Of a stretch of 64,000 nt of DNA, positions 5,768-61,983 are shown piece by piece. The notes below the pieces were generated by a model. The model saw only the letters and a list, made by a program, of their open reading frames with translations, was not told where the DNA came from and ran no database searches. The stretch lies in NCBI GenBank assembly GCA_032718475.1, contig JAUCBJ010001864.1:62001-126000 (forward strand), given 5' to 3'. Numbering within the stretch: the first letter of the stretch is position 1; every line of letters begins with the position of its first letter. This DNA comes from Nemertoderma westbladi. Taxonomy: Eukaryota; Animalia; Xenacoelomorpha. A program made the translations under genes and the position numbers.

Positions 5768-6270
5768 GTGAGTGATTTAGTCTTATAATCTACAGTTTAG
5801 TATTCTAGAAAGTAATACATCACGATCTAAATTTGTTTTGGTAGGGATCTATTAGATCCCGTGTGAATAAACACTGGTAGGGAGGGGGTTTCCAGTATTT
5901 TGTATCAGTTTACCACTTAGTTTGCAGTTTGTCTTTGTATTTGAAAGGTTTCAATTCCGGTTTTCTTCTTTATATTTTATTTTTTTGTGAATTTAAATGG
6001 CCATAATGAAATGCGTTAATGATGGTTGATGCATAATATTATAAATATAATTAATTTATAATTATTATAATTAATATAATCAATATCGTTAATCGTTAAT
6101 TATTAATATAATTTTAGAATAATATTCTCGCAATAAACTTAATTATATTTATAATTATTTAATTTATTTAATGGCCGTGTAAAGCGGGGTAATTTCAATT
6201 GTAGTGACCAAGTATATTTTACCATATCATATAAAGATACCTTAACGTAACGTAATAACATCCTTGGGAG

Positions 6271-24651: not shown

Positions 24652-25715
24652 TAGTATTAGTATGGGAGCTGAATCCGATTCTATGAGTGGTCACGATTCG
24701 CGATAGTATTAGTATGGGAGCTGAATCCGATTCTATGAGTGGTCACGATTCGCGATAGTATTAGTATGGGAGCTGAATCCGATTCTATGAGTGGTCACGA
24801 TTCGCGATAGTATTAGTATGGGAGCTGAATCCGATTCTATGAGTGGTCACGATTCGCGATAGTATTAGTATGGGAGCTGAATCCGATTCTATGAGTGGTC
24901 ACGATTCGCGATAGTATTAGTATGGGAGCTGAATCCGATTCTATGAGTGGTCACGATTCGCGATAGTATTAGTATGGGAGCTGAATCCGATTCTATGAGT
25001 GGTCACGATTCGCGATAGTATTAGTATGGGAGCTGAATCCGATTCTATGAGTGGTCACGATTCGCGATAGTATTAGTATGGGAGCTGAATCCGATTCTAT
25101 GAGTGGTCACAATTCGCGATAGTATTAGTATGGGAGCTGAATCCGATTCTATGAGTGGTCACGATTCGCGATAGTATTAGTATGGGAGCTGAATCCGATT
25201 CTATGAGTGGTCACGATTCGCGATAGTATTAGTATGGGAGCTGAATCCGATTCTATGAGTGGTCACGATTCGCGATAGTATTAGTATGGGAGCTGAATCC
25301 GATTCTATGAGTGGTCACGATTCGCGATAGTATTAGTATGGGAGCTGAATCCGATTCTATGAGTGGTCACGATTCGCGATAGTATTAGTATGGGAGCTGA
25401 ATCCGATTCTATGAGTGGTCACGATTCGCGATAGTATTAGTATGGGAGCTGAATCCGATTCTATGAGTGGTCACGATTCGCGATAGTATTAGTATGGGAG
25501 CTGAATCCGATTCTATGAGTGGTCACGATTCGCGATAGTATTAGTATGGGAGCTGAATCCGATTCTATGAGTGGTCACGATTCGCGATAGTATTAGTATG
25601 GGAGCTGAATCCGATTCTATGAGTGGTCACGATTCGCGATAGTATTAGTATGGGGAGCTGAATCCGATTCTATGAGTGGTCACGATTCGCGATAGTATTA
25701 GTATGGGAGCTGAAT
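24652..25715. repeat. 52-bp tandem array (about 20 near-identical copies); first partial unit at 23131-23169 is separated from it by the LINE
   Basis: Unit GAATCCGATTCTATGAGTGGTCACGATTCGCGATAGTATTAGTATGGGAGCT. Confidence 0.96.
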
Positions 25716-29900: not shown

Positions 29901-30640
29901 ATTAGCAAGTTTTATTGGCTCCGGGAATGGGTGTAAAATGCGGATTCAAGTTAATTACCATTTTTTAATGGATCCGGGACGGGGTGTAAAACGCGGATTC
30001 AAGTTATAATTACCAAGTTTTATTGGATCCGGGAAGGGGTGTAAAACGCGGATTCTAGTTAATTAGCAAGTTTTATTGGCTCCGGGAATGGGTGTAAAAT
30101 GCGGATTCATGTTAATTACCAAGTTTTATAGGATCCGGGAAGGGGTGTGAAACGCGGATTTTAGTTAATTACAAAGTTTTATTGGATCCGGGAAGGGGTG
30201 TGAAACGCGGATTCATGTTAATTACCAAGTTTTATAGGATCCGGGAATGGGTGTGAAACGCGGATTTTAGTTAATTACAAAGTTTTATTGGATCCGGGAA
30301 GGGGTGTGAAACGCGGATTCATGTTAATTACCAAGTTTTATTGGCTCCGGGAATGGGTGTGAAACGCGGATTCATGTTAATTTACCAAGTTTTATTGGAT
30401 CCGGGAAGGGGTGTGAAACGCGGATTTTAGTTAATTACAAAGTTTTATTGGATCCGGGAAGGGGTGTGAAATGCGGATTCATGTTAATTACCAAGTTTTA
30501 TAGGATCCGGGAAGGGGTGTGAAACGCGGATTTTAGTTAATTACAAGGTTTTATTGGATCCGGGAAGGGGTGTAAAACGCGGATTCAAGTTAATTTACCA
30601 AGTTTTATAGGATCCGGGAAGGGGTGTAAAACGCGGATTC

Positions 30641-32230
30641 ATGTTAATTACCAAGTTTTTACTATCAACTGAAAATAATCCACAACTACCAACCATCCCC
30701 GAACAGCCAGATAACGACTTAGACAAACCAATTGATCCCGCTGAAATCACGGAAGCGGTTTACAGTCAAAAGCCAAATAAAGCAGCTGGTCCGGACGGTA
30801 TCACCGGTGAAGCCTTGAAGTATGGTTTTGGTCACCTGCTTCCGTTTTTACTGACATTGTTTAGTGTTTGTTTCGCAACTGCTGCTTGCCCTGCAACCTG
30901 GCTAAAATCATACCTAATTATGCTCTATAAGGGTAAGGGAAGTAAATTATCCCCGGACTGTTACCGTGGAATAGCGCTACTATCATGTTTGTTTAAAGTA
31001 TATACTTCGATATTATTTACACGCTTATATGAATTTGCAGAACGCCGAGGTCTACTACCAGATGCGCAACACGGTTACAGAAAATCACGTTCGACGATCG
31101 ACGCTGTTAAAAGTCTATATACCCGCATCAATTTTGCCCTTGAACCTAAGGGTGGCCATTTATACTGCGTATTTGTTGATTTTCGAAAATGTTTCGACTC
31201 GATAAACCGAGAGATTCTCTGCAGGAAATTATCGAAACTCGGAGTAAGTCGAAAGTTTATTATCGCTATCTGGTCTATGATCGCTATCAACTACATATAT
31301 ATCTGTGTTGGAGTTCACATTCTGGAGCCTATTACTCAAACAATTGGAGTTGTACAAGGCGATAAACTGTCTCCTTTACTTTTTAGTCTTTTTGTATCAG
31401 ACCTACCAGCCTATCTCATATTCGCATCAATTTGGATCATAATGTATGCTGATGATCTAGTCATATCAGGTGACTCTATCGCGGAGGTTCAAGCTAGTCT
31501 AGACAAACTCTCAGAATATTGTGAAGTAAATGGAATCCAGGTCAATATTGCGAAGACAAAGGTGGTTAAGTTCCGGAAGGGGGGGAGATTATCGAGGACT
31601 GACATTCTAGAATATAACGGGCAGAAATTGGAATTTCAAAGCTCCTTTCAATATTTAGGAGTTACTCTCTCAACGAAAAATGGATCCAGAGGACACTACG
31701 ATCATCTATACTCGAAAGGACTCTCCAGTTGTGTTGTAATTGCAACAAAGGTAAACCTACACATCGTTTCGCTAGAATCCGCCCAACGTTTATGGCAGTC
31801 TATTGTCCTTCCATCGACCACTTATGGCTGCAACGTCTTCACTGCAAATGGTGACCTAACGCAACTGGATCATGTTAAACGTGTCCGCGGTTTTTACTGG
31901 AAACTCTGGTGTGGAATAAGCAAGTTTGCCTCCACCACAGCCATCCTAAGTGCCATAGACAACCCGGCTAACTCAGATCCAAACATGACAGGTCTCACAG
32001 GTTTCCGACGCCGCGTGGCAGCGCAGCTATTATCAAACGGTTGCCACCACCGCCTATGTACGAAACTCAATTGCTGGAGACCCACGGAAGACTGCACCTG
32101 TTGGGTGTGTGGCTCCCTGGCGGCAAACACAGACCACTACAAACTATGTACGCGCATACCTCAGTGCAGTTCACACCTAAAGACAGCAATTTGGCTGATG
32201 ACGACAGATGCTGCAACACTAACTATTTAA
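30641..32230 (+). CDS. Non-LTR reverse transcriptase with C-terminal Cys/His cluster (first 6 codons are satellite-derived)
   Basis: KAAGPDGI, YRGIALL, QHGYR, FVDFRKCFDSI, GVVQGDKLSPLLF, MYADD, FQYLG; C-terminal CHHRLC..C..CTCWVC..H..C. Confidence 0.88.
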   Translation: MLITKFLLSTENNPQLPTIPEQPDNDLDKPIDPAEITEAVYSQKPNKAAGPDGITGEALKYGFGHLLPFLLTLFSVCFATAACPATWLKSYLIMLYKGKGSKLSPDCYRGIALLSCLFKVYTSILFTRLYEFAERRGLLPDAQHGYRKSRSTIDAVKSLYTRINFALEPKGGHLYCVFVDFRKCFDSINREILCRKLSKLGVSRKFIIAIWSMIAINYIYICVGVHILEPITQTIGVVQGDKLSPLLFSLFVSDLPAYLIFASIWIIMYADDLVISGDSIAEVQASLDKLSEYCEVNGIQVNIAKTKVVKFRKGGRLSRTDILEYNGQKLEFQSSFQYLGVTLSTKNGSRGHYDHLYSKGLSSCVVIATKVNLHIVSLESAQRLWQSIVLPSTTYGCNVFTANGDLTQLDHVKRVRGFYWKLWCGISKFASTTAILSAIDNPANSDPNMTGLTGFRRRVAAQLLSNGCHHRLCTKLNCWRPTEDCTCWVCGSLAANTDHYKLCTRIPQCSSHLKTAIWLMTTDAATLTI

Positions 32231-32486
32231 ATCAATAGAAAGTTCAAGGCCCGATATACTGTTTATTTATTTTATCTTATTTAATGTGCCTTATATTATG
32301 CCAATCACCCTCTTCCCATCTTTTTATTTAAAATATACTTTTATTTTATTTAAGTTTATTTTATAAATTTTATGTGCTCTATCCAATTACAACTTATCGT
32401 TTTAATTATGTTAAATCAAGTGTCATTACAATAGGCATACTTATAACCATTTACTCATTGAGTAATTAAACGTCATATTGAATCTC
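30660..32486 (+). mobile_element. 5'-truncated non-LTR retrotransposon (clade uncertain) inserted in the 53-bp satellite
   Basis: Satellite unit split at CCAAGTTTT|ATAGGATCC; RT ORF plus about 255-nt AT-rich 3' UTR; no poly(A) and no clear TSD. Confidence 0.85.
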
Positions 32487-33589
32487 ATAGGATCCGGGAA
32501 GGGGTGTGAAACGCGGATTTTAGTTAATTACCAAGTTTTATTGGATCCGGGAAGGGGTGTGAAACGCGGATTTTAGTTAATTACCAAGTTTTATTGGATC
32601 CGGGAAGGGGTGTAAAACGCGGATTCATGTTAATTTACCAAGTTTTATAGGATCCGGGAAGGGGTGTGAAACGCGGATTTTAGTTAATTACAAAGTTTTA
32701 TTGGATCCGGGAAGGGGTGTGAAACGCGGATTCATGTTAATTACCAAGTTTTATAGGATCCGGGAAGGGGTGTGAAACGCGGATTTTAGTTAATTACAAA
32801 GTTTTATTGGATCCGGGAAAGGGTGTGAAACGCGGATTTTTGTTAATTACCAAGTTTTATTGGATCCGGGAAGGGGTGTAAAACGCGGATTCATGTTAAT
32901 TTACCAAGTTTTATAGGATCCGGGAAGGGGTGTAAAACGCGGATTCATGTTAATTACCAAGTTTTATAGGATCCGGGAAGGGGTGTGAAACGCGGATTTT
33001 AGTTAATTACAAAGTTTTATTGGATCCGGGAAGGGGTGTGAAACGCGGATTTTAGTTAATTACCAAGTTTTATTGGATCCGGGAAGGGGTGTAAAACGCG
33101 GATTCATGTTAATTTACCAAGTTTTATAGGATCCGGGAAGGGGTGTGAAACGCGGATTTTAGTTAATTACCAAGTTTTATTGGATCCGGGAAGGGGTGTA
33201 AAACGCGGATTCATGTTAATTTACCAAGTTTTATAGGATCCGGGAAAAAGGGGTGTGAAACGCGGATTTTAGTTAATTACCAAGTTTTATTGGATCCGGG
33301 AAGGGGTGTAAAACGCGGATTCAAGTTACGCGGATTCAAGTTAATTACCAAGTTTTATTGGATCCGGGAATGGGTGTAAAACGCGGATTCATGTTAATTA
33401 CCAAGTTTCATTGGATCCGGGAATGGGTGTAAAACGCGGATTCAAGTTAATTACAAAGTGCGGTATCCGTCGTTATTATTACACGTATATATATTTACTA
33501 CAATCTCCATCCTATAAATTATGTCTTTAAATTAAGTCCTCATGAGGTGCTATGGCTGCAGGTCAGTATTAATCGCCAGGTCATATTAT

Positions 33590-34185
33590 TCCCGGATCCA
33601 GTAACACTTGGTAATTAACTTAAATCCGCGTTTTACACCCCTTCCCGGATCCAACACTTGTTAATTAACTTGAATCCGTGTTTTACACCCCTTCCCGGAT
33701 CCAGAAACACTTAACTTGAATCCGCATTTTACACCCCTTCCCGCATCCAGAAACACTTTTCAATTAACTTGAATCCGCGATTTACATACACCCCTTCCCG
33801 GATCCAATTAAACTTGGTAAATTACTGTAACTTGAATCCGCGTTTTACACCCCTTCCCGGATCCAGAAACACTTTGCAATTAACTTGAATCCGCTATTTA
33901 CACCCCTTCCCGGATCCAATTAAACTTGGTAAATTAACATGAATCCGCATTTTACACCCATTCCCGGATCCAATAAAACTTGGTAATTAACATGAATCCG
34001 CGTTTTACACCCCTTCCCGGATCCATTAAAACTTTGTAATTAACTAGAATCCGCGTTTTACACCCCTTCCCGGATCCAATAAAACTTGGTAATTAACTTG
34101 AATCCGCGTATTACACCCCTTCCCGGATCCAATAAAACTTGGTAATTAACTTGAATCCGCGTGTTTTACACCCCTTCCCGGATCC
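33590..34185 (-). repeat. 53-bp satellite, inverted arm (about 11 units)
   Basis: AATCCGCGTTTTACACCCCTTCCCGGATCC units are the reverse complement of the forward arm. Confidence 0.93.
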
Positions 34186-34321
34186 CATCCCTTCCTATAA
34201 TAAATGTATAATAACAAATACCTCGAAAAATACAGCTTGCCAACACATTGTTACTATCAATAATACAAATCAGGGGCTAATAAAACGGCAGCTGGCTTTG
34301 AAATTAATACTCCATATCTCA

Positions 34322-41580: not shown

Positions 41581-41871
41581 TCGTGGCTCGTTCCACAGTA
41601 TATTAATTTAATACAGTTCCAATTTAATAATTTATTTAATATAGTTCCATCTAACAACTTTTGTTATTGGGTTATTTAATACGCATGACCATTCAGTTTG
41701 ATAAAACATTACTTTTGTTACATTATGTTTAAATTAACAGCGTTCTGGTGAATTACTCGTAACGCTGCAAAGTTGCAACGTTTTGCAGCGTTGCGGCCTA
41801 TAGGACGGAACGCTGCAAAGTAATCAATGACATGGAAACAATTTCAATTAACGTATTCCAGAATGTATTAT

Positions 41872-44123
41872 TGATGAATTATTTCACTATAAGATAGCAT
41901 TTGTAGTTTAACTTTAACGTAAAAACTTTCGAAAATCCGACGTATTTTGATTGAGTTACAGTAATGTAATATGCCTATTCATATTTGTACACATAAAACC
42001 CCTAGGTACTCTCGTGGCGTAGTGGTCAGATGGTTAAGGCGTTGGTTACATTACATAGGTTACGAGTTCGAATCCCAGTCGGGAAATTTGTATTTTGGGG
42101 CCATTTATTTTCGTTTGGTGCTAATTGGTAGGCCAATGAGAAGCGTACAGCGTAGCGAATGATGAGCCAGGCCAATCATAGGGCATAAATTATCTTATTG
42201 CTCAAATGTGAGGCAGTGGAAAATTCTGTTAGGATTCCATGTCCCAGATTAGTGTAAGGGCCGGACTGCGTTGAACGATGAGCTGGGCCAATCATAGGGC
42301 ACGAAGCACTTCATTGCTCAATTGTGAAGCTGTGGAAAATTCTGTTTAGTTTCCATGTGCAATTTCTAGTATAAAAAGGCCGGTTTGCCTTCGGTTATCA
42401 CCTTCTTTGTAAAACTCTTATTTTGTAAAATTAGTTTATTCGGTTTCTTGTTGAAACTTTATTTGATAAATCCTTTTGTAAAACTGTAAATATACTGCAA
42501 TTTCCTGACATGTTTTCTTTTGGTCCGACTTCGGGACAGCCGAACACCAGGGAGATGGCAGCCTAGATCGTTAGGCCGTAAGCAACGCAGGGAAGGGATG
42601 TCCACAACACGCTAGCGCCCACATTGGATCGACCGCGCACCCCCTTTGCCCCTTCGAAATACTCCACTTGCTATGCAGCGCCCGCTTTGTGAGAAGGTAA
42701 GACTTTGTTCGACGCCCTTGCCCGCCGTAAGACCTATAGATCAGGGTAAGCGTGACATCGTACTGGACGCCGCAAATTTAGGATCAAATAATTATATCCA
42801 GACACCCCCCCTTTGTCAAGTCCTACGAATCCCTGGGTTAACCTGTACTTCCTACAGGTGCGAACTATTGCCATTCGTCAGTACGCGAGTACATATTAGG
42901 TACGGACAGCACATGTTCCATAATTTAGTGATTCATAGCACTGACTGTTTGGTACCGGTTCGCTTTGTAGAACGTACATTAGTACCCCCCCCCCCCCCCC
43001 CTCTGTCTGGAGTTAGCTATTTGATCAGGCAAGGAGCATTTCTGCTACCGGCACACTGCTTGGCCTAGGGAGGTTTATTAATATCCTACCGCGCCTTGCC
43101 ACGTACTGATAGGTATTGCTGCTAACTACCGCAGCAACAAAGTTCTAGAATTAAATTAGTATACCAGATCAGCTAACGTACGGTAGCGATTAACCCCTAT
43201 TCTTATCTTACAACCAGAATCTGGTATTAGTGCCGATCACGGGTGTAGTTACTAACACTGTGGTTGCCCATTGGGTTGTGGATAGGAAGGAGAGAGCTTT
43301 GACGTCATTTGTGAGTATAAAGTTCTACAAACGCGACTAGTTTATTTTAGTAGCTAGCGCACGGTATCATTTAGTCAGAAAATCACTAAAACCTAGTAAA
43401 AGGAATTACACGAAATTGTTTTATTTGTAACACACCCACACACACACGCCCTAAAACATATTGCCCTTAAAGTTCTACTAGCTATAGCGTACTATACATT
43501 ACGTTAGGTGGAAATTATCTGTATTTGTAAAATTAGGATCTGATTTAGTTGCGGCAAGATAAGGAGTATTTCACTTTCGTTATTAAACTGTTGTTTGTCT
43601 GGACAACGGTATTGTTACATTTAGGCCTGACCTTTTAGACTGATTTCGTACAGGGGGATCAGTTATTGTTACATTTAGGCACGACCTTTAGGCTGATTTC
43701 GACAGGGATGATCAGCATTGTTACACTAGGTCTGTTAACCACCTAGTTCGTATATAACCCATATAAATCACACCGCGGCAAGTTACTGTATTTAGGACTG
43801 TCAGTGATAGTTAGGATTCGCTGCGTGGGGATTGTTTTCCCGTGAGTTTGGTCTGTTACTGTAACTGTACATCTGCCTCACCGGTTAGAGGACAGGTATC
43901 CTTCTGTCTAGTACGTAGGCATTAGACCCGCTCACGTACATAGAATAGATACAAGGCTCTGTTCCTCGCCAGTAGTCGTTTGTGTACTATATCTGTTTGT
44001 TTAGATATCCTGGACTGGGATTTGTTGTCAGATACTGTACAAGCCCGTATACATTACTAGAGTCTCATAGTAAGATACATCGTTACTAGGATCTGGTAAG
44101 CGGTATACTACTGGACCCTTACA
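41872..44123 (+). repeat. 5' LTR (2252 bp)
   Basis: Starts TGATGAATT and ends CCCTTACA; three CCAAT boxes and TATAAAA at 42370; TGACGTCA at 43300 followed by TATAAAA at about 43317. Confidence 0.95.
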
Positions 44124-45117
44124 GTAGGAAGTACTATATAAATTAGTGTATAGTATTGTTAGATCTGTACGCTTTGTAGTGCGTGCGCACTACAATAGTA
44201 GGAAGTATATTAGACAAATTCTGAAATTAGCGTATAGTATAGTTTAGAATTGTTAGCTATTGAAAGTAGGAGATATTTAAAATTTAAGGTTAGTAAATTT
44301 AGTAATTTAGAACGTCCCCTGCTTCAGTAGGCTTTTAGGGTAGCTAGTACTTTCGTATTTAATATTTGACTAGCTAACAGTTAGTTTGTAGCACTTTGTT
44401 TTACGCCGTGTGTGTGCGGTGTTACTTTTCGGTACTTGAAAAGGTACATAGGGTTTAAAGACCAATTTGTATCGGTACCTAGGAAGATTTTTCGTAAGCG
44501 TAGAAGTAAAACTCTCACCTTCGACCTTTTCAGGACTCAAGGACTCATTTCTGGACCGCTTCGAGGATTAGACCGCTTTTCGCAAAGTTTGGGAGACAAT
44601 AAATTCGTCCGCGCCGCCGAAAAACGGAAAGACCCACGTCCGGTTTGTATTTGGGAATTTGTACGACTGGAAGATCAAAGGAACGTAAGTTTTACGACTC
44701 GCGTCGTTCAAACTTAAGAAAGCACAGTAGTACTCAAAATTTGTGGGTTTCACTGTCTATTAGTAGTGTTGTTGGTACTTATTTTCCCGTTAGACGTTGC
44801 TGTTTGGCCTATTGTTTATACTTGTTGATCTATATTTTGTTAACGTATACCGTTATCTCACTTATTCGTACAAATTTAGCCGGTAGGCTAGATTACTACT
44901 TATTTTATTATATACTTTGTTAGTTTATTTGTACCGGTTAGGATATATATATGATATATATATATATCAAGGTAAGTTTGACATTTGTACATTTCGACAT
45001 TTTGACATTTCGACATTCTGACTTGTTGATTTATTTGTACCGGTTAGGTAAGTTCGACACTTCAACATTCAGACACTTTGACATTTTATTACCCGTACTT
45101 GACGTATATAATAAGAC

Positions 45118-48100
45118 ATGAGTGACACACCCCATTCGACGAGATACCCACCTACCGACTATGACTCGTGCGACCCGGACAGATCGACAGTAGACGAACC
45201 GAGAAGGAGAACCCGAGATTCCACCGATGTCACACCGCTTGCGTCGCCGGTACCCCGAACGGAAATACCGGAAGCCGCAACGCGTGGCGACAGCAGGATC
45301 GAAGATTTCCTTACCGTCCCGCAGACTAGATCGCGGGAACCGGACATGGTAAGTTCGACTGGAAGCCAGGAGAACGTTATTAGAAGTATAGGAGGACACA
45401 TGGCCCAGATTACTCGGAACCTCGGAGAAGGTTTTCGCGTTTTACGCGAGTTAACCGCCCCGATGTCGAGATACGAGTTCTACACCTTACAGGTAAGGAT
45501 AGAAAGTAGGGTACATGCCTCCGTAGATAAACTTAAAGGTTTGCACGAACTTGCAGAGTTGCGTGGCGACAACTTTACTCAGGTAAAGATAGTAGATAAA
45601 TTGGTAAGTGCGAGAGAAAGCCTTATCCAGTTTAAGTCGGTAATAAGCTTGGCTCAACAGGAGCAGTTCGACCAACTGCTAGGTGAGTCAGTTTCGGACG
45701 CGTTGTTACAACCCGAAGAGGAAGAAGAACTCTACTGCCTGGACGGAAGGTTGGAAACGCTGACCAATTTTCTTCGTAGATGCGGCGTACCGATCGACGA
45801 ACCGGAAGTCGAACCGCGAGGGACGACGGAAGTTCTCACTACGGAAGGCTCGCGAGCCTACCAACATCCACCGCTGGATAGATCGTTTGTTAGCGTACGG
45901 AGCGACGTTGGCAACGTTGGCGACGTTAGTAGAACAGCGTCTGGAATTACTCGACAACAACAGGAGGTTGCACGCCGACAACAAGTCGCCGAGGAAGAAG
46001 CGCGACACCAGATGGCACAGATCGCCATCGAAGGAGAGAAACAACGTAGAGAAGACGAGGCAAGAATTGCACAACTCAAGGCGCAAGCTGAATTCGAAGC
46101 ATCAGAAATGCGCAGACTGGAGGAGGACTTAGCGCGAGAAGCGGCAGCCGACGAGTTAGCACGGCAGAAAGCAGCATCCGACGTTCGTGCCAAGTTGGAG
46201 GCGCGGCAAATAAACGCTCGATTAGCTATACAGGAAGCGGAATTAGCGGCACAACAACAGGACGCAGATCGACGCGAAAGGGAGATGCAACTACAGTTCG
46301 AATTGAATCGTAGATCGCGCGAGACAGCGAACGCGCAAGCGGACCTCGAACTCGACGCGAGAGATAGATCTATGAGATCGCGAACTGGACACGACTTGTC
46401 TGCCCTGGATCGTATGGAAGCTCGATATCGCGGAATACAGAAGCGGATCGAGGAAGGAAGCGTGGGAGCGATAGATCGAGGAGAGGAGTTCGTCGAGGAT
46501 TACTGCAAACGTTTTCCCCAAGTTATTCCTATGCTCAAACCCACGACTCCGATAAAACCGGTCTTCGTTACGAAACCTAAGGAAATAACGCCTGTGCGTT
46601 CGACGCAAGGCAACAGGTTTGTTGTGACGGAAATACCGCAACCTAGGGCGACTTCATCGCCAATTTTAGCAGGTAACATAACTAGTCCACCTACAGTAAG
46701 TCGTAGTCTACTTGTAGGAAGAGAGGAACCTGCGTTTATGACCATTAAACAGGTGAGTAAACCATTACAAGTTAAACCTGTGACGTGCTGTGCAAATCCA
46801 GTTATTTACAGACCGACTACGAAACCCGACTATTTCACTCGACCGTTGACACAATGTTCGACGCAACCTACGACTTCGTGGAAGGCTTGCGAGCCTACCG
46901 AACTACGGAGGAGGATGGAGGTGGGTAGTACCCACGGGATCGGACAACGTATAGCGAGACCTACGACTTCGTGGAAGGCTTGCGAGCCTACCGAACAACG
47001 GAGAGCCGTAGATTCCGGACCGCAACGGACGAAAACGAGAGTAATACGCCGGACACGAACCCGCCAACCACCTTATCCGGACGACAGCGATTCATCTAGT
47101 GACTCGGAGTCGACGGAACGGGAAATATTCCGTACTGGAGCGGCGGAAGATTGCAAACGAGAGGAGAGATCGACGAACCCCTATATCGACAATCCTCCAC
47201 GAGAAACACCCCAACAGAAACCCACGTTGAAACCAGCGGAAACGATCAGCGCTAAACAGTTCACCGAGATGACGGACAGAATAGCTCAACTCGAAGAACG
47301 ACTCGAAGCGCAACCGTCGGATCGATCACGAACCAGCGTGGAGTTGGAACAACCTAGACAACATCGACCACCGAGGAGAGAACAGGAGACTAGACGGACT
47401 CCGACACATCGAAAAGAAGATCCCGTTAATAATTCCTACCGACGAACAACGCGCGGAAGGGAGCGACTGGACGACGCCGCCGAACAGGGACGCGGACAGT
47501 TGGATTTGGTTAGCGAGATTGCGAAATTCGCGGCTAGACACGGATTACCGGCACAGCAACCGCCGAAGTTCTCTGGCAACGCGAAACACTGGCGCACACT
47601 GGTAGACTACGTAGAGTCCCAGATCGCTAAGTGTGCTTTCACCTCGACGGAGAAGTTTAACTACTTGCTCCAAGTCCTGTCTGGTGAGCCGAAACGATTA
47701 GCGGAAACCTTTATTGGTGTTCCCGATGCCTTTGAATTGGCGTACGACCGTTTGTATTCGATTTACGGCGGTAATGTCGCCATGGCTAAATCCATTATAG
47801 AAGACCTCTGCAGAGGAGGCAACATTTCGAGACCGATCGACCTTTTACGACTCGCGGACGAAATAAAGAACGCTATAGGGACTTTACGGTCCATTGGACA
47901 ACTCGAGTACGCTAACGCACCGACGGTTCTCATTCGAATAATCGGTCGACTTCATCATCGACTACGACGAGAATGGCGATGCATCGAGTACCAGCGCGAA
48001 GAGGCCGGAGGGTTATTAAAACTCACCGATGTCTATCAACTTATTTCACGGGAGGCCGTGATTGAGACTCGATCGAACTATACCGATCACCATATCGCGG

Positions 48101-51100
48101 CGGAAGGGATAACTGTTTCTGCGCCGAATCGGACTAAACCGTTTCCGACGAACGCGAAAGCCGTTACTTACGCCACCCCTACTGAGACTTCTAAAGTTCT
48201 GACGCCTATCGGCACCACGCAGCCACGACAACAGTTGCCGGCGGACTTTGTGGGATGCTCATACTGCGAGCGGAACGGCAGAAACCATAGCGGACATAAA
48301 CTACGTGGATGTCGCGCTTTTAAAGAGTTAGGGATCGAGGAAAGGAGACTCCAAATCCGATCTCTAGATTCCTGTTGGAGATGTATGAAGCCAGGACACG
48401 TCCGGAAGGATTGCCCGAGCGACGATACATGTTCTTTGTGTGGACGTAACCATGACGCGTTGCTTCACACAACCAGTCATACTCCGACCCGACGCTTTCG
48501 ACGAGAGCATCCCGATAAAGCGGCTAGATGCGACGCGCTTTATAAGGAGCGTGCGCCGCGCGAGATCCGTACCTTTTATACCGACTGTATGGATCAGTCA
48601 GGATCATCGGACGAGGACGAGGAGGAAGACGACACTTTCTACGTGCATGCAGGTGAGGAACAGCCATCGATAACGCTCCTCACACAGAACCAATTGAAAG
48701 GGTTTAGCGTGATTCCTATAAAGATTACCGGAACCCGAGGGAGCAAGCGTATATACGCCATCTTAGACTCTGCGTCATCGCATAGCTATGTCGACGAACA
48801 AGTAGCCGACGTAGTTACGGACTTGAGTCAAGGTAAGACTGCTCAGTATACTGTAAGCAGCATGTATGGTAAGAGAGCGATTCCTGTGACGAGAGTAAAA
48901 CTAACCTTAGACACTCTTCTTTCCAAAGCGGAACACAGCAAGGAGGAGCGCTCATTACTTCCGGTAAGAAATTTGACCTTTGCAGCTACGAAGGACTTTA
49001 GTAACTTGCTCGGCCCTGTGCCAGAGCAATCACCGGAAGATCGTAAGTATTTCCGACACCTTGGAATACCGGAATGTCCTGTCAATTATCGTTCCATTGC
49101 GATGTTAATTGGGACAGACCAGTTTAACTTACATCAGGTATGGGAGACACGCCCATCTGTTATTACAGCGGGCAACCCCTACGCATGTAGAACTCCCATA
49201 GGTTGGTATACTAGAGCACCAATACGTTCACTAGAGGTAAGTGACCAGGAGGACGACGTTTTGAGTATGTGTAGTTTATTGACTAACACGATAGATAATT
49301 CTCCTTCACACTCCCGTGGTCCAATTGTACGGACGGCACTACGACAGACTCGCGTCACTAACACAGACGCCACCGATACTGACGTAACCGATCTGGACAC
49401 GACCATACGGACCTCTGACTTACAACTACTTGCAGTAGACCAGGTTGTATTGACTACTGAAGACCTGAGGGTTGTTGCCGTGGATGACTCGATGAACGAA
49501 GATTTTGGAAGGCTTGCGAGCCTACCGAAAAATCCGAAGGTCATTGACCCCACCCACCAGGCTTCGACACCGGTCGTTGATCTTGGAAGGCTTGCGAGCC
49601 TACCGATAGATCAAGAGGTTGTCAAACCGCCGCACGACAATTCGACGCCGACTAGTGACACCGGAAGGCTTGCGAGCCTACCAGACACATTGACACTAGC
49701 CACCGCAGCGGACGAAGACGTGGACGAGGACCATGGCGCAGTGCAAGCAGCGCTTGACCGACTGCTGACTGAACGGACCATTCAATGGTTGGAACAGGAC
49801 TCAGCAGAACCCGGTAGTTACGAGACCGCTATGTCAGAACAGGAAAAACGGTCATTAAATATTATGAGAGATACCATTCGCCAGACCGCGAATGGCCACT
49901 ATGAGGTTGGTATGTTGTGGCGCGATGGACAACCTAAGCTCGTTAACAATTACCCGCTTGCTTTGAGGCGACTCAAATCAATAAGGCAGCGATTGTTGCG
50001 AGACGAGACGGCCCATATGCAATACAATGCACAACTTCAGACGTATCTCCAAAGGGGATACGCCATTAGGATGTTAAATCCTGAGGTAACCACAGACCAG
50101 ACATATTACCTGCCACATCATTTTGTTCGACACCCGGACAAACCTGGCAAGGTGCGTGTAGTCAACGACTGCGCTGCACTTTACCAAGGGATGTCTATGA
50201 ATAGCGAACTGATGGACGGGCCGAATATGAATAATTACCTCATGGGAGTCCTAATGCGTTTTAGACAACGCAAAGTGGCTTTCACCTGTGACGTAGAGGC
50301 CATGTTTCACCAGGTTAAGGCTTTGGAGCGGGACAGGGACAGTTTGAGGTTTCTTTGGTATCCGGACGGAAACTTACAACTTCCGCCAGAAACTTACCAA
50401 ATGCAGGTAAGAGTATTCGGAGCCAGGGACAGCCCCAACTGCACCATGTACGCCTTAAAGCAGACAGCATTAGACAGACGAGACCAATTTGACCCAGAAG
50501 TAGTTCGGACCGTGGAACGAGACTTCTACGTGGATGACGGCCTCAAGAGTTGTGACACCTTGGAGCGCGCTACAACCGTAGCACACCAACTCCAGGATTG
50601 TCTCGCTGAGGGCGGATTTCACCTGACGAAGTTCGCTTCCAACGAACCCGAACTGGTGAACTCATTTGACCCGATGGATCGTAGCGGAGGTGACTTGGAC
50701 TTAGACTTAGAACCTCTGCCGACGACCAAAGTATTAGGACTTAGTTGGGACCCTAACACCGACAATTTTAGGGTACGTGTAAGGTCCAACGACCAGACTA
50801 GACCTCTCACAAAGAGGACTTGCTTATCGACCATGAGTCGATTGTATGACCCATTGTGTTTCATTAGTCCAGTGATCCTACATGCCAGGATCATACTCCG
50901 CAGCATTTGGCAAGCCGGACTGGAATGGGACGATCCCATCCCAGAAAAGTTAGCTGAGCGATGGAGGGACTGGGAAGCCCAACTGACGTTCCTACAAGAC
51001 TATACCATACCAAGGGTATACCATACGCGGCTAGTTTACCCGGAATTCGTTTTTTATCGGCACATTTTTTGGATTAGGAGCCAGTGCGAAATCACGCGAA

Positions 51101-51114
51101 CCCGAAATCATTAG
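45118..51114 (+). CDS. BEL/Pao Gag-protease-RT polyprotein, truncated before the RNase H catalytic motifs and integrase
   Basis: Coiled-coil N-terminus, PPKFSG..W capsid region, Cys/His knuckles (CWRCMKPGHVRKDC, CSLCGRNH), protease LDSAS, YYLPHH, DVEAMFHQV, LRFLW, FYVDD, KVLGLSW, LYDPL, WDDPIP; homology ends at IPRVY (about 51022). Confidence 0.93.
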   Translation: MSDTPHSTRYPPTDYDSCDPDRSTVDEPRRRTRDSTDVTPLASPVPRTEIPEAATRGDSRIEDFLTVPQTRSREPDMVSSTGSQENVIRSIGGHMAQITRNLGEGFRVLRELTAPMSRYEFYTLQVRIESRVHASVDKLKGLHELAELRGDNFTQVKIVDKLVSARESLIQFKSVISLAQQEQFDQLLGESVSDALLQPEEEEELYCLDGRLETLTNFLRRCGVPIDEPEVEPRGTTEVLTTEGSRAYQHPPLDRSFVSVRSDVGNVGDVSRTASGITRQQQEVARRQQVAEEEARHQMAQIAIEGEKQRREDEARIAQLKAQAEFEASEMRRLEEDLAREAAADELARQKAASDVRAKLEARQINARLAIQEAELAAQQQDADRREREMQLQFELNRRSRETANAQADLELDARDRSMRSRTGHDLSALDRMEARYRGIQKRIEEGSVGAIDRGEEFVEDYCKRFPQVIPMLKPTTPIKPVFVTKPKEITPVRSTQGNRFVVTEIPQPRATSSPILAGNITSPPTVSRSLLVGREEPAFMTIKQVSKPLQVKPVTCCANPVIYRPTTKPDYFTRPLTQCSTQPTTSWKACEPTELRRRMEVGSTHGIGQRIARPTTSWKACEPTEQRRAVDSGPQRTKTRVIRRTRTRQPPYPDDSDSSSDSESTEREIFRTGAAEDCKREERSTNPYIDNPPRETPQQKPTLKPAETISAKQFTEMTDRIAQLEERLEAQPSDRSRTSVELEQPRQHRPPRREQETRRTPTHRKEDPVNNSYRRTTRGRERLDDAAEQGRGQLDLVSEIAKFAARHGLPAQQPPKFSGNAKHWRTLVDYVESQIAKCAFTSTEKFNYLLQVLSGEPKRLAETFIGVPDAFELAYDRLYSIYGGNVAMAKSIIEDLCRGGNISRPIDLLRLADEIKNAIGTLRSIGQLEYANAPTVLIRIIGRLHHRLRREWRCIEYQREEAGGLLKLTDVYQLISREAVIETRSNYTDHHIAAEGITVSAPNRTKPFPTNAKAVTYATPTETSKVLTPIGTTQPRQQLPADFVGCSYCERNGRNHSGHKLRGCRAFKELGIEERRLQIRSLDSCWRCMKPGHVRKDCPSDDTCSLCGRNHDALLHTTSHTPTRRFRREHPDKAARCDALYKERAPREIRTFYTDCMDQSGSSDEDEEEDDTFYVHAGEEQPSITLLTQNQLKGFSVIPIKITGTRGSKRIYAILDSASSHSYVDEQVADVVTDLSQGKTAQYTVSSMYGKRAIPVTRVKLTLDTLLSKAEHSKEERSLLPVRNLTFAATKDFSNLLGPVPEQSPEDRKYFRHLGIPECPVNYRSIAMLIGTDQFNLHQVWETRPSVITAGNPYACRTPIGWYTRAPIRSLEVSDQEDDVLSMCSLLTNTIDNSPSHSRGPIVRTALRQTRVTNTDATDTDVTDLDTTIRTSDLQLLAVDQVVLTTEDLRVVAVDDSMNEDFGRLASLPKNPKVIDPTHQASTPVVDLGRLASLPIDQEVVKPPHDNSTPTSDTGRLASLPDTLTLATAADEDVDEDHGAVQAALDRLLTERTIQWLEQDSAEPGSYETAMSEQEKRSLNIMRDTIRQTANGHYEVGMLWRDGQPKLVNNYPLALRRLKSIRQRLLRDETAHMQYNAQLQTYLQRGYAIRMLNPEVTTDQTYYLPHHFVRHPDKPGKVRVVNDCAALYQGMSMNSELMDGPNMNNYLMGVLMRFRQRKVAFTCDVEAMFHQVKALERDRDSLRFLWYPDGNLQLPPETYQMQVRVFGARDSPNCTMYALKQTALDRRDQFDPEVVRTVERDFYVDDGLKSCDTLERATTVAHQLQDCLAEGGFHLTKFASNEPELVNSFDPMDRSGGDLDLDLEPLPTTKVLGLSWDPNTDNFRVRVRSNDQTRPLTKRTCLSTMSRLYDPLCFISPVILHARIILRSIWQAGLEWDDPIPEKLAERWRDWEAQLTFLQDYTIPRVYHTRLVYPEFVFYRHIFWIRSQCEITRTRNH

Positions 51115-51248
51115 GCAAAATGGGTTGGGGTTTAGAGCAGAGTTGAGCCAAAAGCCAACAAACTCTGGAGTCACCTCCCATCTAACCTCTATTTTGTGCT
51201 TCATCTAGTAGAAACGTAACGATATGTAACCGCATATATTCGTATACG

Positions 51249-54200
51249 ATGGCGGAGAAGATGTATAAAGAGTTACGTCAAGGGTTTACGCAAGAACAGG
51301 AGCACCAGGCGCCATTCAATCGTTATGGAGCTAAAAACTTTAGTGTGTTTGGAGTGGAGAGTATGGCTAGGAGTACGGCCAAGCTCGCTAAATCCAAGGC
51401 GGACCCGAATGTTAGCGACAGCGGTTGGACGCATACAACAAAAGAACGGAGGAATTACGCGCGGAATACAATGCGTTATATCCCTACGATGCGTTATGCG
51501 ACGCTAGCGACATTTGCGAGGATCCAGACACCGAAATACGCCGATTGTATCATACGCTGCAATATTTGACGGTAAACAAACCTTTACCTGCAGCTAGAGA
51601 CGAATTTGAAGGAATGCATCTTTATAGACGCGCTCGAGGAGCGGATCCAGAGACCAAGGACGCGTTTTCCGTATACAAACTGTTTTATAAATGTGGAGCG
51701 TGTATGCGCGAGCAAGACAACGCGATTCCTATGCGGTTGAACTCGGAGAACCCCGAGCCGATATTAGCGCGATGTTCACACCACCAAAGTCTACGTTACC
51801 AAGAAGGCGGATACCCTTTGACAAATCCGTATCATTCTTTTAAGATGAGTGGACCGAACGCGGGTGAGATCGTTATTTACGAACCTAAATTAGTCGAACC
51901 AGACGTCTACAGCATGGTAGTGGACGAGTCTAACAAGTCGACTCAAGAGAAACGGGAAGCTTTGAGCCTCTACAGGGCGTACAAGGCGTACGAGAAAGGC
52001 GAGATCGAGGAGTTCGGCGGAAGGCTCGCGAGCCTACCATTCTATTGGATATCCCACGATCAAACCGAACCCAAGGAGATGACACCCGAGCTCTTCGATA
52101 GTATCACCTTTGCTCAGCGTTTGTCGCAGAGACTACAGATACCTCACGTTGAGATGACGCGAGAACCTCAGCCCCATTCTACTGGAGCGATAGTATCGGT
52201 TGCGAGACCAACTAGTTTTCCTATTAGTATACCGACCCGGAAGGAGACAACTTACGAGATCCCTATAGTTGAACACCCGGAGATCATCTCGAACCTGGAT
52301 TTCCTCCCATCGGTCACCTTCGGTGATGTGTTAGAATCAACCGAGTTGCGTAAAGTAATAGTTCAAAAAATCGTACGCAACGTGCCTCCACATATCACGG
52401 ACTTTAAGGAAGTGGATCGCGCGGGGACGGATATCGCACCTTGTATCTTGCGAGGATATCTGACGAAAACGATTCGATTATGGATCGGAGTTGGGACGTT
52501 TGAGACCGACACCGATATCGCGACCAATTGGACTGGTAAACCTATTAGTTTCGATGATGAAAAGTCGATCGGGAGAATTTGGAACCCTACCGATGATTTA
52601 CTCGACGATTGGGACGTGACTAGCCGATCTCTGAAAGAGAATGGATATATGTTTTACGATAATGAAGGAGGAAGCCATCAGCAAAGCCTCACTTCAAAGA
52701 CGATACAGATTAGAGCACCAGATGGCGTGTTACATGTCTTCAGCCGACAGAGGAGTGATAGGAAGATGCCTATGCCGGAAGGAACGACGCAAAGACACGC
52801 GATGATAAAACGGATAGTTAAATCCATGGACCTGGCTTGTAGCATAGAAGCTAGGATGTTGCCAAAGGCCGTGCGAGACGTTGTGTTGGATAAGAGCATC
52901 GTCAAGATCGGATCCGGTGTACGGGATGACCTCATTAGCGACTTTGCAGGGATGCCCACGGAAGAGGACCGATTGCCTACGCCATACGTGGATACTAGAC
53001 CATTGTTGCTTTGGGCTATTGAGCAAGGATACTTTAGAGAGTATAACATGCTAAAAACTGGGACGGGTTATATCTCATATCTGATGTTCAGTTGGGATTA
53101 CAAGGAGAGTAAGAGGAACAAATACACGGACGTATACGGAGAGGGAGATACCCCCGGCGTAAACGAGTTCGAGTCACAGTTGAAGTGGCGAGGTTGCGTG
53201 TATTGGGCGATTACTTCACCTCCGCGGATAATCTTGCAATACTATTTAGCGATAGAATCTTCGGTTAACGTTTGTTTCATCGCGGACGTAGTATCCAGAA
53301 CCTTAAAGCGACACCCGTTATGTCTTGGCGAAGGACATACCTTTTACGATGGAGGAAGGACGCATACCGATGTATTCCGACGATTTCTCCAACCCTTTTA
53401 TAACACCGATGCGCACTGCGAAGTTTTCACGCGAGCGGGACTTAGCGTTTTCAGGGACGTCTATCTCACTCACGCGGGAAGTCTAGTTGACAGACCGTCG
53501 ATGTTAACGTTAGTACCCTATGACGGGGAACGCCACGCGGAATTCGAACGCCCGGAAGGATCCTGGAAGGCTCGCGAGCCTACCGCCCATCATGACGATG
53601 TGGATCCGACCGAGTTGGCGCTAATAGACGAACCGTTACGGCAACTCATAGAAATAGAAGAGAACCTTCCAAGGAAGACGCGAACTGAGATACGCGAGTT
53701 AGAGAAAAGCGATGCCATGGTTTGTGTACAACCTACGGAGACGAACATACCGACTGACCCGGATGATGAGAATTATCACGTGGACGGTAGCGCTCGCCCC
53801 ATCGGAGACCTCATCTATGAGCGAGTTTGGTATCCTGCCAACACTATTTGTGGCAGATGTGGAGCAACTGGCCATCACGCAAAGAAGTGCGGAGCGAAGC
53901 ACATATCTCTACCGGATTTAGTATGCAACTGGTGCGGGGATCAACGTTCGCACACTTTCTACACTTGCTGGCGTTTCGTGGCGCAGTGTACTTATTGTAA
54001 TATTAAGGGCCATAGGGCATCTGAATGTCAACTTAGAGACGTCCCCTATGAGCACATGTCAGTTAAAATCGTTCGACAATTATTCGACCATTGGGAGGAT
54101 CTAGCAGACGAGCATGTATCGACGCAGCGACGCCGCTTCCCTATGAGAGCACATTTGGGATTTTGGGCCGTAAACCCTCTCATAATGTCAAAGGAAGGAT

Positions 54201-55003
54201 ATGTATCGGCTATGCCTCAGTACGATGAATTGTTGGAGGTATTGGATATATTGCCGTTGGACAGTGGATTCAAAGTTGTGCGGGACTATTTCTTACAAGT
54301 GCACCCGGACAACAAGAATACTTAGAACTTTCAAACTGTGGTGAACAAGATTACCGCCGGAGAATTCGATAAACTGCGAGTTGAACAGCGGAATCGAGGA
54401 GCCTGGCATTCGATAGCTTGGGCATACCGGAGCGCATTTTATCACAAACGCGTAACCTCGTGCATTCTGGACGAGACCGACGTTTTGCGTGAGACTGGCT
54501 TCAAGGCCACGCCGTTAGCGGAGAAGACGCGTCACCCACAGGATGATCAGCAATTTCGTATACTCAAAGCCCAGAAGGCCGGACAAGAGATTAAGAAGAT
54601 AGTGAATGTCGCCGAGAGGACGACATCGAAATCGCAAATCCGGATGACTCGGGGCACGGTTTCCCTTGCTAGAGAACCACACGGAGGGACAGGATACGCT
54701 TTGACTGAACCCATTAGGATTCAAACGACGTCAGAGAGCGAGGTGTCAACGGACGGAACAGTCCTACCCTTTCGACTTCCTCCTAGCGTTGTAGAAACTC
54801 GATCCGATGTTAAGTCGACAGTTGGAATCGGACGAGGATTTAGAGGATTGAGCGCACGACGGATGTGCGAAACTCCCGTCGTCCCCTTTCCTAGCGTTTT
54901 GGAACCACCGACGACTCGACGCCGAAGTCCGAGCCCAGTTCGACCTCGACCACCCCCCAATCGCACTAGAGGACGTGGACGAGCCCGCTCAGCGAAGGAA
55001 TAG
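51249..55003 (+). CDS. Cargo ORF: DEDDy (WRN/EXD-like) 3'-5' exonuclease, three CCHC knuckles and a basic tail; main open segment 51416-54325, probable frameshift near 51413, in-frame TAG at 54323
   Basis: Exo I FYDNE and IQIRAPDGVLHVF; Exo II LPKAVRDVVLDKSIVKIGSGVRDDL; VDT; Exo III-like QYYLAIE; CGRCGATGHHAKKC, CNWCGDQRSHTFYTC, CTYCNIKGHRASEC. ORF 54338-55003 is in the same frame after a single TAG. Confidence 0.7.
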
Positions 55004-55662
55004 GAAGCGAGTGGAAGGAAGGCTTGCGAGCCTACCGATTTGGATATTATATTTGGATATTATATTTGGATGTTATATTTGGATATTATATTTGGATATT
55101 TTATTTGGATATTTATATTGGACATTATGTTTGAACGTTGGGTTTGGAAGAACGAGATATGGAAAGGAAGGCTTGCGAGCCTACCGTTAGCAATTAGTGC
55201 TCAGGAGAAGATATCCAGACCAGCAGGACGAACTTTTAAGATCGTCAGGAGGACTCTTTAAGACTTATTTGAAGGATTTTAGCGCATTATGTTTATTTTA
55301 TATTTAGACTGATTTAATTTGGTGAATTTATTATGTATATTTACAATATATAAAGATTTATCGAAAGAGTTTGATTTATTTGTTTGATTTGTTTGATTTA
55401 TTTGTTCTGATTTGTTTAATTTGCTTACCTTGATAACCGAAAGCCTTTTTTTTGTATTTTAGGCACTAAAGTTAATTAGTAAATTTGTATTTGTATGTAC
55501 GATCGATTGTATTTACGCCGTATCTGCAATATTAAATATGCAATAATTAGATAGTGATTATATTTTATATTTTAGGCCCTACCAGTAAATTTAGAAATAG
55601 TTTGTAAATATTTTATATTTCGATTGGTGAAAACAGTCTTACTTACTGTTTTCATGGAGCGG

Positions 55663-57936
55663 TGATGAATTATTTCACTATAAGATAGCATTTGTAGTTT
55701 AACTTTAACGTAAAAACTTTCGAAAATCCGACGTATTTTGATTGAGTTACAGTAATGTAATATGCCTATTCATATTTGTACACATAAAACCCCTAGGTAC
55801 TCTCGTGGCGTAGTGGTCAGATGGTTAAGGCGTTGGTTACATTACATAGGTTACGAGTTCGAATCCCAGTCGGGAAATTTGTATTTTGGGGCCATTTATT
55901 TTCGTTTGGTGCTAATTGGTAGGCCAATGAGAAGCGTACAGCGTAGCGAATGATGAGCCAGGCCAATCATAGGGCATAAATTATCTTATTGCTCAAATGT
56001 GAGGTAGTGGAAAATTCTGTTAGGATTCCATGTCCCAGATTGTAAGGGCCGGACTGCGTTGAACGATGAGCTGGGCCAATCATAGGGCACGAAGCACTTC
56101 ATTGCTCAATTGTGAAGCTGTGGAAAATTCTGTTTAGTTTCCATGTGCAATTTCTAGTATAAAAAGGCCGGTTTGCCTTCGGTTATCACCTTATATTATG
56201 TCACTTCTTACCACTTTGTAAAACTCTTATTTTGTAAAATTAGTTTATTCGGTTTCTTGTTGAAACTTTATTTGATAAATCCTTTTGTAAAACTGTAAAT
56301 ATACTGCAATTTCCTGACATGTTTTCTTTTGGTCCGACTTCGGGACAGCCGAACACCAGGGAGATGGCAGCCTAGATCGTTAGGCCGTAAGCAACGCAGG
56401 GAAGGGATGTCCACAACACGCTAGCGCCCACATTGGATCGACCGCGCACCCCCTTTGCCCCTTCGAAATACTCCACTTGCTATGCAGCGCCCGCTTTGTG
56501 AGAAGGTAAGACTTTGTTCGACGCCCTTGCCCGCCGTAAGACCTATAGATCAGGGTAAGCGTGACATCGTACTGGACGCCGCAAATTTAGGATCAAATAA
56601 TTATATCCAGACACCCCCCCTTTGTCAAGTCCTACGAATCCCTGGGTTAACCTGTACTTCCTACAGGTGCGAACTATTGCCATTCGTCAGTACGCGAGTA
56701 CATATTAGGTACGGACAGCACATGTTCCATAATTTAGTGATTCATAGCACTGACTGTTTGGTACCGGTTCGCTTTGTAGAACGTACATTAGTACCCCCCC
56801 CCCCCCCCCCCCCCTCTGTCTGGAGTTAGCTATTTGATCAGGCAAGGAGCATTTCTGCTACCGGCACACTGCTTGGCCTAGGGAGGTTTATTAATATCCT
56901 ACCGCGCCTTGCCACGTACTGATAGGTATTGCTGCTAACTACCGCAGCAACAAAGTTCTAGAATTAAATTAGTATACCAGATCAGCTAACGTACGGTAGC
57001 GATTAAACCCTATTCTTATCTTACAACCAGAATCTGGTATTAGTGCCGATCACGGGTGTAGTTACTAACACTGTGGTTGCCCATTGGGTTGTGGATAGGA
57101 AGGAGAGAGCTTTGACGTCATTTGTGAGTATAAAGTTCTACAAACGCGACTAGTTTATTTTAGTAGCTAGCGCACGGTATCATTTAGTCAGAAAATCACT
57201 AAAACCTAGTAAAAGGAATTACACGAAATTGTTTTATTTGTAACACACCCACACACACACGCCCTAAAACATATTGCCCTTAAAGTTCTACTAGCTATAG
57301 CGTACTATACATTACGTTAGGTGGAAATTATCTGTATTTGTAAAATTAGGATCTGATTTAGTTGCGGCAAGATAAGGAGTATTTCACTTTCGTTATTAAA
57401 CTGTTGTTTGTCTGGACAACGGTATTGTTACATTTAGGCCTGACCTTTTAGACTGATTTCGTACAGGGGGATCAGTTATTGTTACATTTAGGCACGACCT
57501 TTAGGCTGATTTCGACAGGGATGATCAGCATTGTTACACTAGGTCTGTTAACCACCTAGTTCGTATATAACCCATATAAATCACACCGCGGCAAGTTACT
57601 GTATTTAGGACTGTCAGTGATAGTTAGGATTCGCTGCGCGGGGATTGTTTTCCCGTGAGTTTGGTCTGTTACTGTAACTGTACATCTGCCTCACCGGTTA
57701 GAGGACAGGTATCCTTCTGTCTAGTACGTAGGCATTAGACCCGCTCACGTACATAGAATAGATACAAGGCTCTGTTCCTCGCCAGTAGTCGTTTGTGTAC
57801 TATATCTGTTTGTTTAGATATCCTGGACTGGGATTTGTTGTCAGATACTGTACAAGCCCGTATACATTACTAGAGTCTCATAGTAAGATACATCGTTAGT
57901 AGGATCTGGTAAGCGGTATACTACTGGACCCTTACA
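55663..57936 (+). repeat. 3' LTR (2274 bp)
   Basis: Near-identical to the 5' LTR; preceded by a short purine-rich GGAGCGG and a 10-bp hairpin (55628-54); followed by the TSD ATTAT. Confidence 0.95.
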
Positions 57937-57941
57937 ATTAT

Positions 57942-61943: not shown

Positions 61944-61983
61944 TTCCCACCCCCTCAGTCCAACACACTGGATGACTTAAACT

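Follow-up and report, generated by a model that had tools for sequence, protein, structure and literature searches.

The BEL/Pao retrotransposon at positions 41872-57936 (+) of a 64,000-nt stretch of the Nemertoderma westbladi genome (GCA_032718475.1, contig JAUCBJ010001864.1, 62,001-126,000, forward strand; hereafter the window) carries next to its 5' LTR, in place of a tRNA primer-binding site (PBS), an 11-nt sequence whose exact complement lies inside the LTR itself. This complementarity is real and beyond chance, and we consider it very probable that the element uses its own RNA as primer in some form. The particular form that we favor, with moderate confidence, is one in which the duplex between 42845-55 and 44124-34 would replace the tRNA and an RNase H cut made in trans would free the primer.

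The limits of the element were set by self-BLAST, by its ends and by a target-site duplication. The 5' LTR (2252 nt, TG...CA, 41872..44123) and the 3' LTR (2274 nt, 55663..57936) are flanked by ATTAT at 41867..41871 and 57937..57941, and a short purine-rich stretch at the polypurine tract position (55654..55662) precedes the 3' LTR, all on the plus strand. The TG...CA termini and the 5-bp duplication fix the LTR end exactly at 44123, where the first-pass annotation had placed it. In the self-BLAST, the 2 LTRs are 98.6% identical, with 4 substitutions and 3 indels between them, so the insertion is young. ORF1 (45118..51114, +) is a BEL-type gag-protease-RT frame with DUF1759 (Pfam, E 3.9e-9), zinc knuckles, and Peptidase_A17 (Pfam, E 3.6e-18), and all 120 RT-region matches listed (of 1038) are BEL polyproteins with PF05380 at 38-47% identity. 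ORF1 terminates after position 72 of the 162 in the Pfam Peptidase_A17 profile, a complete relative of 1879 aa aligns to it only up to residue 1204, and neither Pfam profiles nor alignment to that relative found RNase H or integrase regions in the window copy. Its LTRs, DUF1759 Gag, zinc knuckles, Peptidase_A17, and an RT nearest to BEL polyproteins are shared with BEL/Pao (Belpaoviridae, Semotivirus); judged by sequence, the RT and Gag ancestry is BEL/Pao, and the window copy is a defective, non-autonomous deletion derivative of a BEL lineage.

The site that adjoins the 5' LTR (44124..44134, +; PBS1) reads GTAGGAAGTAC, and its reverse complement occurs at 42845..42855 (+), the candidate self-primer, and again in the 3' LTR at 56654..56664 (+), so the complementarity described in the first-pass annotation is exact. 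The match is 11 nt and no longer, extension to 12 nt failing. A chance expectation of about 5e-4 had been given for it. In dinucleotide shuffles of the LTR, 12 of 20,000 reach the match at offset 0, and 56 of 20,000 when offsets 0-3 are permitted. Only one of 981 leader 11-mers has a complement in the LTR, the one at 44124, and 3 of 11,529 internal 11-mers do. A canonical tRNA PBS (18 nt, starting with TGG) was not found; the first TGG 3' of the LTR lies at 44552, 428 nt away, in keeping with the earlier claim that none adjoins the LTR end. A second PBS-like copy with a 10-nt match (44198..44207, +; PBS2) sits in a duplicated leader segment and had gone unmentioned.

Contigs from 3 samples show that the family is multi-copy. 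Variant frequencies were taken as shares of summed contig depth in runs X1, X2, and X3, of which X1 and X3 represent one sample. Among the variants listed, 4 at a frequency of at least 1% fall within 44124-34. The commonest, C>T at 44134 (24% in X1, 59% in X2, 31% in X3), keeps the pairing as G-U, as does A>G at 44126, while G>A at 44127 (1-3%) and G>A at 44131 (4-17%) would each break a pair unless compensated at the LTR site. A TGG form of the PBS, which the first-pass annotation had proposed to look for in sibling copies, does not occur among the sibling-contig variants listed. Loose ends in sibling contigs at 44117-44157 show leader repeats that span the last LTR bases and the PBS. Contigs of run X6 skip or replace the primer-site stretch (window 42715-42888 and 42797-42860), which suggests diverged sister families with another primer. 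Run X4, possibly RNA, gave 11 contigs and no joint, which speaks neither for nor against splicing.

The primer site lies deep within the predicted transcript. From a TATA box at 42370..42376 (+), the usual spacing puts the start of transcription near 42401, so that the site would begin ~445 nt behind the start and end ~455 nt into the RNA, unlike nt 11 in Tf1. The first-pass annotation had listed a transcription start at the primer site as one way to make the primer end, an option that the TATA position disfavors. It would amount to a true Tf1 arrangement, a second promoter starting the genomic RNA at 42845 with the first 11 nt as primer. The match does have a length of exactly 11 nt, with a sharp limit at 42845, as in Tf1 (PMC7175516), and alternative starts are reported to regulate Tf2 (PMC5341516). 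However, TATAAA occurs in the LTR only at 42370, 43316, and 43762, with just the first of these upstream of the primer site and none near 42815; the sharp 11-nt limit would be expected as well if plus-strand synthesis copied part of a longer primer; and the junction primers of relatives described below are evidence for internal primers in this group. We regard a start at 42845 as very unlikely.

Around the primer site the LTR is dense in splice-like signals. Four GTAAG donor-like motifs (42578, 42697, 42727, and 42746; 42578..42750, +) are packed into ~170 nt upstream of it, compared with ~1 per kb outside; of the 2 donors named earlier, that at 42697 is correct and the other starts at 42746 rather than 42745. 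Further 3' come a pyrimidine tract with AAG at 42818-20 and TCCTAC, which is 6 nt of the primer (42804..42826, +; the site of the rival splice-junction primer considered below), and a branch-point-like TTAAC (42838..42842, +). A 7-bp hairpin with loop CTTCC (42841..42859, +; arms 42841-47 and 42853-59) overlaps the primer site. This hairpin had been pointed out before; it is present, but it is not exceptional, since 32 of 739 LTR windows fold equally well. Because the flanks of the 11-mer are self-complementary (GTA...TAC), part of the PBS-LTR match could stem from selection on the hairpin. The acceptor earlier proposed at 42857 is acceptor-like by virtue of the branch-like TTAAC at 42838, the pyrimidine tract, and the CAG at 42855-57, yet in motif scoring the same CAG/GTGCGA (42855..42863, +) also reads as a donor at 42858, matching 6 of 8 donor consensus positions. 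The first hexamer in the LTR that resembles a poly(A) signal is ATTAAA at 43150..43155 (+), 3' of the primer site; a second lies at 43582, and AATAAA is absent from the LTR.

Self-pairing is not confined to this element. We collected 20 BEL loci (L001-L020) from metagenome and genome contigs with 35-46% RT identity to the window element and scored 10 of them, leaving out 6 loci of the same family as L010 (L003, L004, and L006-L009) and 4 with no recognised LTR/leader boundary (L005, L011, L015, and L016). In 7 of the 10, a stretch of 11-12 nt no more than 4 nt from the LTR end pairs with the element's own LTR, and the count rises to 8 of 10 when up to 8 nt are allowed, a limit that was widened for L020 after looking; the LTR ends of L002, L010, and L018 in this count are inferred, their 3' LTRs being cut off. 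The 2 remaining loci are L001, which has a canonical TGG tRNA site and a self-match of 5 nt only, and L014, counted as a miss, where 8 nt pair perfectly (15/300 shuffles) and 10 of 11 pair by eye with one mismatch. In an all-against-all matrix that includes the window element, own pairs reach at least 11 nt in 8 of 11 elements at offsets up to 4 and in 9 of 11 at offsets up to 8, compared with 0 of 110 mismatched PBS-LTR pairs. That 8 of the 10 BEL relatives scored show self-pairing with different letters makes tRNA-independent priming, as the first-pass annotation proposed for a BEL element, the best reading, and the same 11-12 nt self-pairing in most distant relatives checked implies that the group likely primes with its own RNA.

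The self-pairing relatives differ in how the partner is made. Two have a contiguous partner in a short LTR, as in the window element: L010 (203-214 and 327-338; 12 nt, offset 2, 1/300 shuffles), whose PBS is tandemly duplicated as it is in the window element, and L017 (6301-6311; 11 nt, offset 4, 1/300 shuffles). In the other 6 of 8 (L002, L012, L013, L018, L019, and L020), the partner exists only as a predicted exon-exon junction that joins a GTRAG donor to the final LTR acceptor and has AATAAA after it, with letters that differ between families. The pairing with this LTR junction is 11 nt in L002, L012, L013, L018, and L019 and 12 nt at offset 8 in L020. Under a strict junction rule, shuffles did as well in 0/300 (L002), 2/300 (L012), and 3/300 (L013) cases, and under a relaxed rule in 4/500 (L002), 26/500 (L012), 9/500 (L013), 7/500 (L019), and 1/500 (L020); the L018 pairing has no shuffle control. 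Splicing as the source of the primer end was another option of the first-pass annotation; in most relatives, its predicted role is to assemble the primer, not to terminate it. In the 9 non-tRNA relatives, 44-149 nt of the (spliced) RNA separate the primer end from the LTR end, as against 1268 nt in the window element.

For RT placement, a quick tree was used, from which L020 was omitted as too short. It joins L012, L013, and L018 in one clade (SH-aLRT 95), within which primer and PBS letters change together. The window RT forms a long branch grouped with no self-priming relative, so that these relatives serve as an analogy rather than as close kin; several of their loci share a bin and probably come from one host. 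The idea that the contiguous primer of L017 is an intron-less form of the L013 junction is unsupported by a clean alignment. L011-L020 are complete animal-type BEL elements in contigs filed as bacterial MAGs, where they are probably host contamination.

Since a junction partner is the rule in 6 of the 8 self-pairing relatives, the window element itself might build its primer in this way, by joining TCCTAC at 42821 to an exon whose last base is 42485 (GT donor) or 42496 (GC donor). The contiguous 11-mer would then be of secondary importance or have replaced the junction more recently. Of 139 AGs, the acceptor at 42820 comes second by pyrimidine count, the GC-donor junction matches PBS2 over 14 nt (4/1000 shuffles), and the T variant at 44134 would fit the 42821 junction. 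The 14-nt test was chosen post hoc, however, and PBS2 does not adjoin the LTR end. Against PBS1 the pairing spans just 9-10 nt, which 311/1000 shuffles equal, and the donors are weak (5/8 and 4/8 consensus positions), with 4 stronger GTAAG donors lying in between. A search for splice-junction primers for PBS1 in the window found no junction that outdoes the contiguous match. We judge a junction-built primer distinctly unlikely here.

In the reading that we prefer, a contiguous primer cut inside the RNA, transcription would start near 42401, the LTR hairpin would open, and 42845-55 would pair with 44124-34, where the loop CTTCC could nucleate on GGAAG. As in Tf1, RNase H would then cleave the RNA and leave a free 3'-OH, but here the cut would fall behind C42855, ~455 nt from the predicted transcript start. 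Because the window copy lacks both RNase H and integrase, both would have to be supplied in trans. Strong-stop DNA would run from 44123 to 42856 and then jump to the 3' R, which must extend past 42856; the ATTAAA at 43150 fits this. Splicing probably regulates access to the primer. If an intron with its 3' end at 42857 were removed, the primer would be lost and only mRNA would result; if instead 42858 served as donor for a 3'-terminal acceptor, the primer would come to lie 44-149 nt from the LTR end, as in the relatives. All of these steps beyond the sequence complementarity are inferred.

Folding models bear on this point. In the predicted unspliced 1.9-kb RNA (42401-44300), the primer-PBS duplex has a probability of 0.0, and in a cut-down model the fold with the duplex enforced reaches -49.3 kcal/mol against -49.4 unconstrained. 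When the RNA is spliced in silico with 42858 as donor, the summed probability that the site is paired with either PBS copy is 0.90-1.0 for 6 of 6 3' acceptors tried, compared with 0.42 for an arbitrary join; in 4 of the 6 short spliced models the pairing is mainly to PBS2. A hairpin that encloses the PBS and could form a kissing loop, drawn by eye, proved weak (-2.4 kcal/mol). The lack of the duplex in the unspliced fold would suit an explanation in which the site is decayed or binds a host RNA, such as a tRNA half or another small RNA, the LTR match being chance or a by-product of the hairpin, and half-tRNA priming is known in Copia lineages (PMC6317226). This is nonetheless unlikely, given a p of ~6e-4 to 3e-3 at the only relevant position, the recurrence of self-pairing in 8 of 10 relatives, with sequences unrelated to each other, as against 0 of 110 cross pairs, and a family that is young and multi-copy with the PBS site in place.

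Downstream of ORF1, the element has an extra frame, ORF2 (51416..54325, +; 969 aa, stop to stop), with zinc knuckles at its C terminus and a middle part that is weakly predicted to be DEDDy 3'-5' exonuclease-like. An Atlas lead points to 3'-5' exonucleases (0.91), with PF01612 on 11-29% of cluster members. A word search found no homologue, and a full HMMER scan of 1.84 billion representatives found one, P0123 (E 5.9e-5), for which no further homologue was found. Aligning ORF2 with this one homologue by eye brought out D-x-E, D, and Y-x-x-x-E residues, which we take to be at positions like motifs ExoI-III of DEDDy exonucleases. Searches of ORF2 against Pfam and PDB gave no match, P0123 matched PDB entries only at the level of zinc knuckles, and the 2 AlphaFold models made in this work (pLDDT 30-31) are too low in confidence for fold comparison.

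Such an enzyme could matter if the primer were a splice product, that is, if the 3' tail of the excised intron (to 42857) or the 5' exon from the first splicing step paired with the PBS and the DEDDy-like protein trimmed the 2 unpaired nt. The primer does end 2 nt before the AG, with a branch-like motif 13-17 nt upstream and donors packed densely, and ORF2 supplies its weak 3'-5' exonuclease signal. Progeny made in this way would risk intron loss, though, the exonuclease call is weak for the reasons given above, and an ORF2-like frame was found in none of the first 10 relatives tested, among them the self-pairing L002 and L010; we therefore hold this route to be highly improbable. More tentatively still than for the RNase H-cut primer of the window element alone, one might envisage a widespread BEL/Pao branch that has exchanged tRNA priming for an 11-nt self-primer that is cut inside the RNA under the control of host splicing and possibly end-trimmed by the exonuclease-like ORF. 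The primer would be made at a junction in most families, and here the AG/GT choice would either delete it to give mRNA or bring it near the PBS to give genome RNA.

Among known systems, Tf1, Tf2, Tj1, and the Tf1/sushi elements are the closest in design, since they also have no tRNA PBS and carry by the 5' LTR an 11-nt PBS complementary to their own LTR (PMC7175516, PMC4600332, PMC10085805). In Tf1, the first 11 nt of the transcript serve as primer for an 11-nt PBS (PMC7175516), and further duplexes flank the PBS in a three-duplex "pretzel" (PMC10085805). This structure is weakly matched in the window element. A Tf1-type U5-leader duplex can be drawn (-17.1 kcal/mol, 8/1000 shuffles), but several others of the 338 LTR windows equal it, and the duplex 3' of the primer is no better than chance (583/1000 shuffles). 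Unlike the Tf1/sushi group, which are Ty3/gypsy chromoviruses, the window element has a BEL/Pao RT and Gag, and unlike Tf1 it has its partner site a predicted ~445 nt inside the RNA, embedded in splice signals, in a 2.25-kb LTR. Judged by its sequence, it would work like Tf1 in its self-priming, yet it is no member of Tf1/sushi.

Self-priming has been reported for Tf1/sushi and Tcn1 and predicted for the Copia lineage TAR (PMC6317226, PMC6934838, PMC4600332, PMC5341516). TAR (Houba, Osr-1; plant Ty1/copia) and Tcn1 resemble the present case in that self-priming was inferred from sequence outside the yeast elements studied experimentally; they belong to other superfamilies and hosts, and the accessible text of PMC6317226 describes no connection with splicing. 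The ICTV profile of Belpaoviridae gives an 18-nt tRNA-Arg/Gly PBS, tRNA priming, and LTRs of 0.2-1.2 kb, and describes BEL/Pao replication as poorly understood (PMC8742986); a fly BEL element is reported to have a tRNA-Tyr site (PMC4580426). The window element departs from this description in having no tRNA PBS, and also in its 2.25-kb LTR, its missing RNase H and integrase, and its extra ORF. A term search of the available text of the main BEL survey (PMC3118150) returned none of the words primer, PBS, and tRNA, and the accessible portions of PMC8220671, PMC5443660, PMC3601003, and PMC3286476 hold nothing further on the question. Searches of the literature outside subscription journals, Repbase Reports, and supplements turned up neither self-priming in BEL nor a primer built by splicing. 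The Juno and Vesta LTR retrotransposons of bdelloid rotifers are reported to carry downstream of pol an additional frame, ORF3, that resembles a DEDDy exonuclease (PMC5408684). Those elements are not BEL and no link to priming is made in the text available, while the ORF2 assignment here is weak.

If self-priming holds, a mechanism so far demonstrated in Tf1/sushi alone and predicted in one Copia lineage would have arisen here independently. The element would be freed from tRNA supply and, by inference, from silencing by 3' tRNA fragments, and the failure of PBS finders on these BEL elements would be explained. Through the junction primers of the relatives, host splicing would be linked directly with the initiation of reverse transcription.

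Some further features of the sequence may be recorded. Searches for other RNA genes gave 0 tRNA genes with ARAGORN and 3 Rfam matches, all sub-threshold, and scans of viral contigs gave no match. By eye, tRNA/SINE-like A-box and B-box motifs are present in U3 at 42006-42087, with no ARAGORN or Rfam call. Just 5' of the TATA box, 42157-42358 holds an 86-nt tandem duplication (81% identical), and at 42404, right at the predicted transcription start, 21 nt of the 3' LTR are absent from the 5' LTR. Elsewhere in the window are large tandem arrays of 46-, 52-, and 53-bp units (6100-19500, 24650-25700, and 27100-34200), 2 LINE-like RT ORFs (23218-24690, - strand, and 30611-32230, + strand), and the remnant of a second BEL-like gag-protease region at 61980-64000 (- strand).
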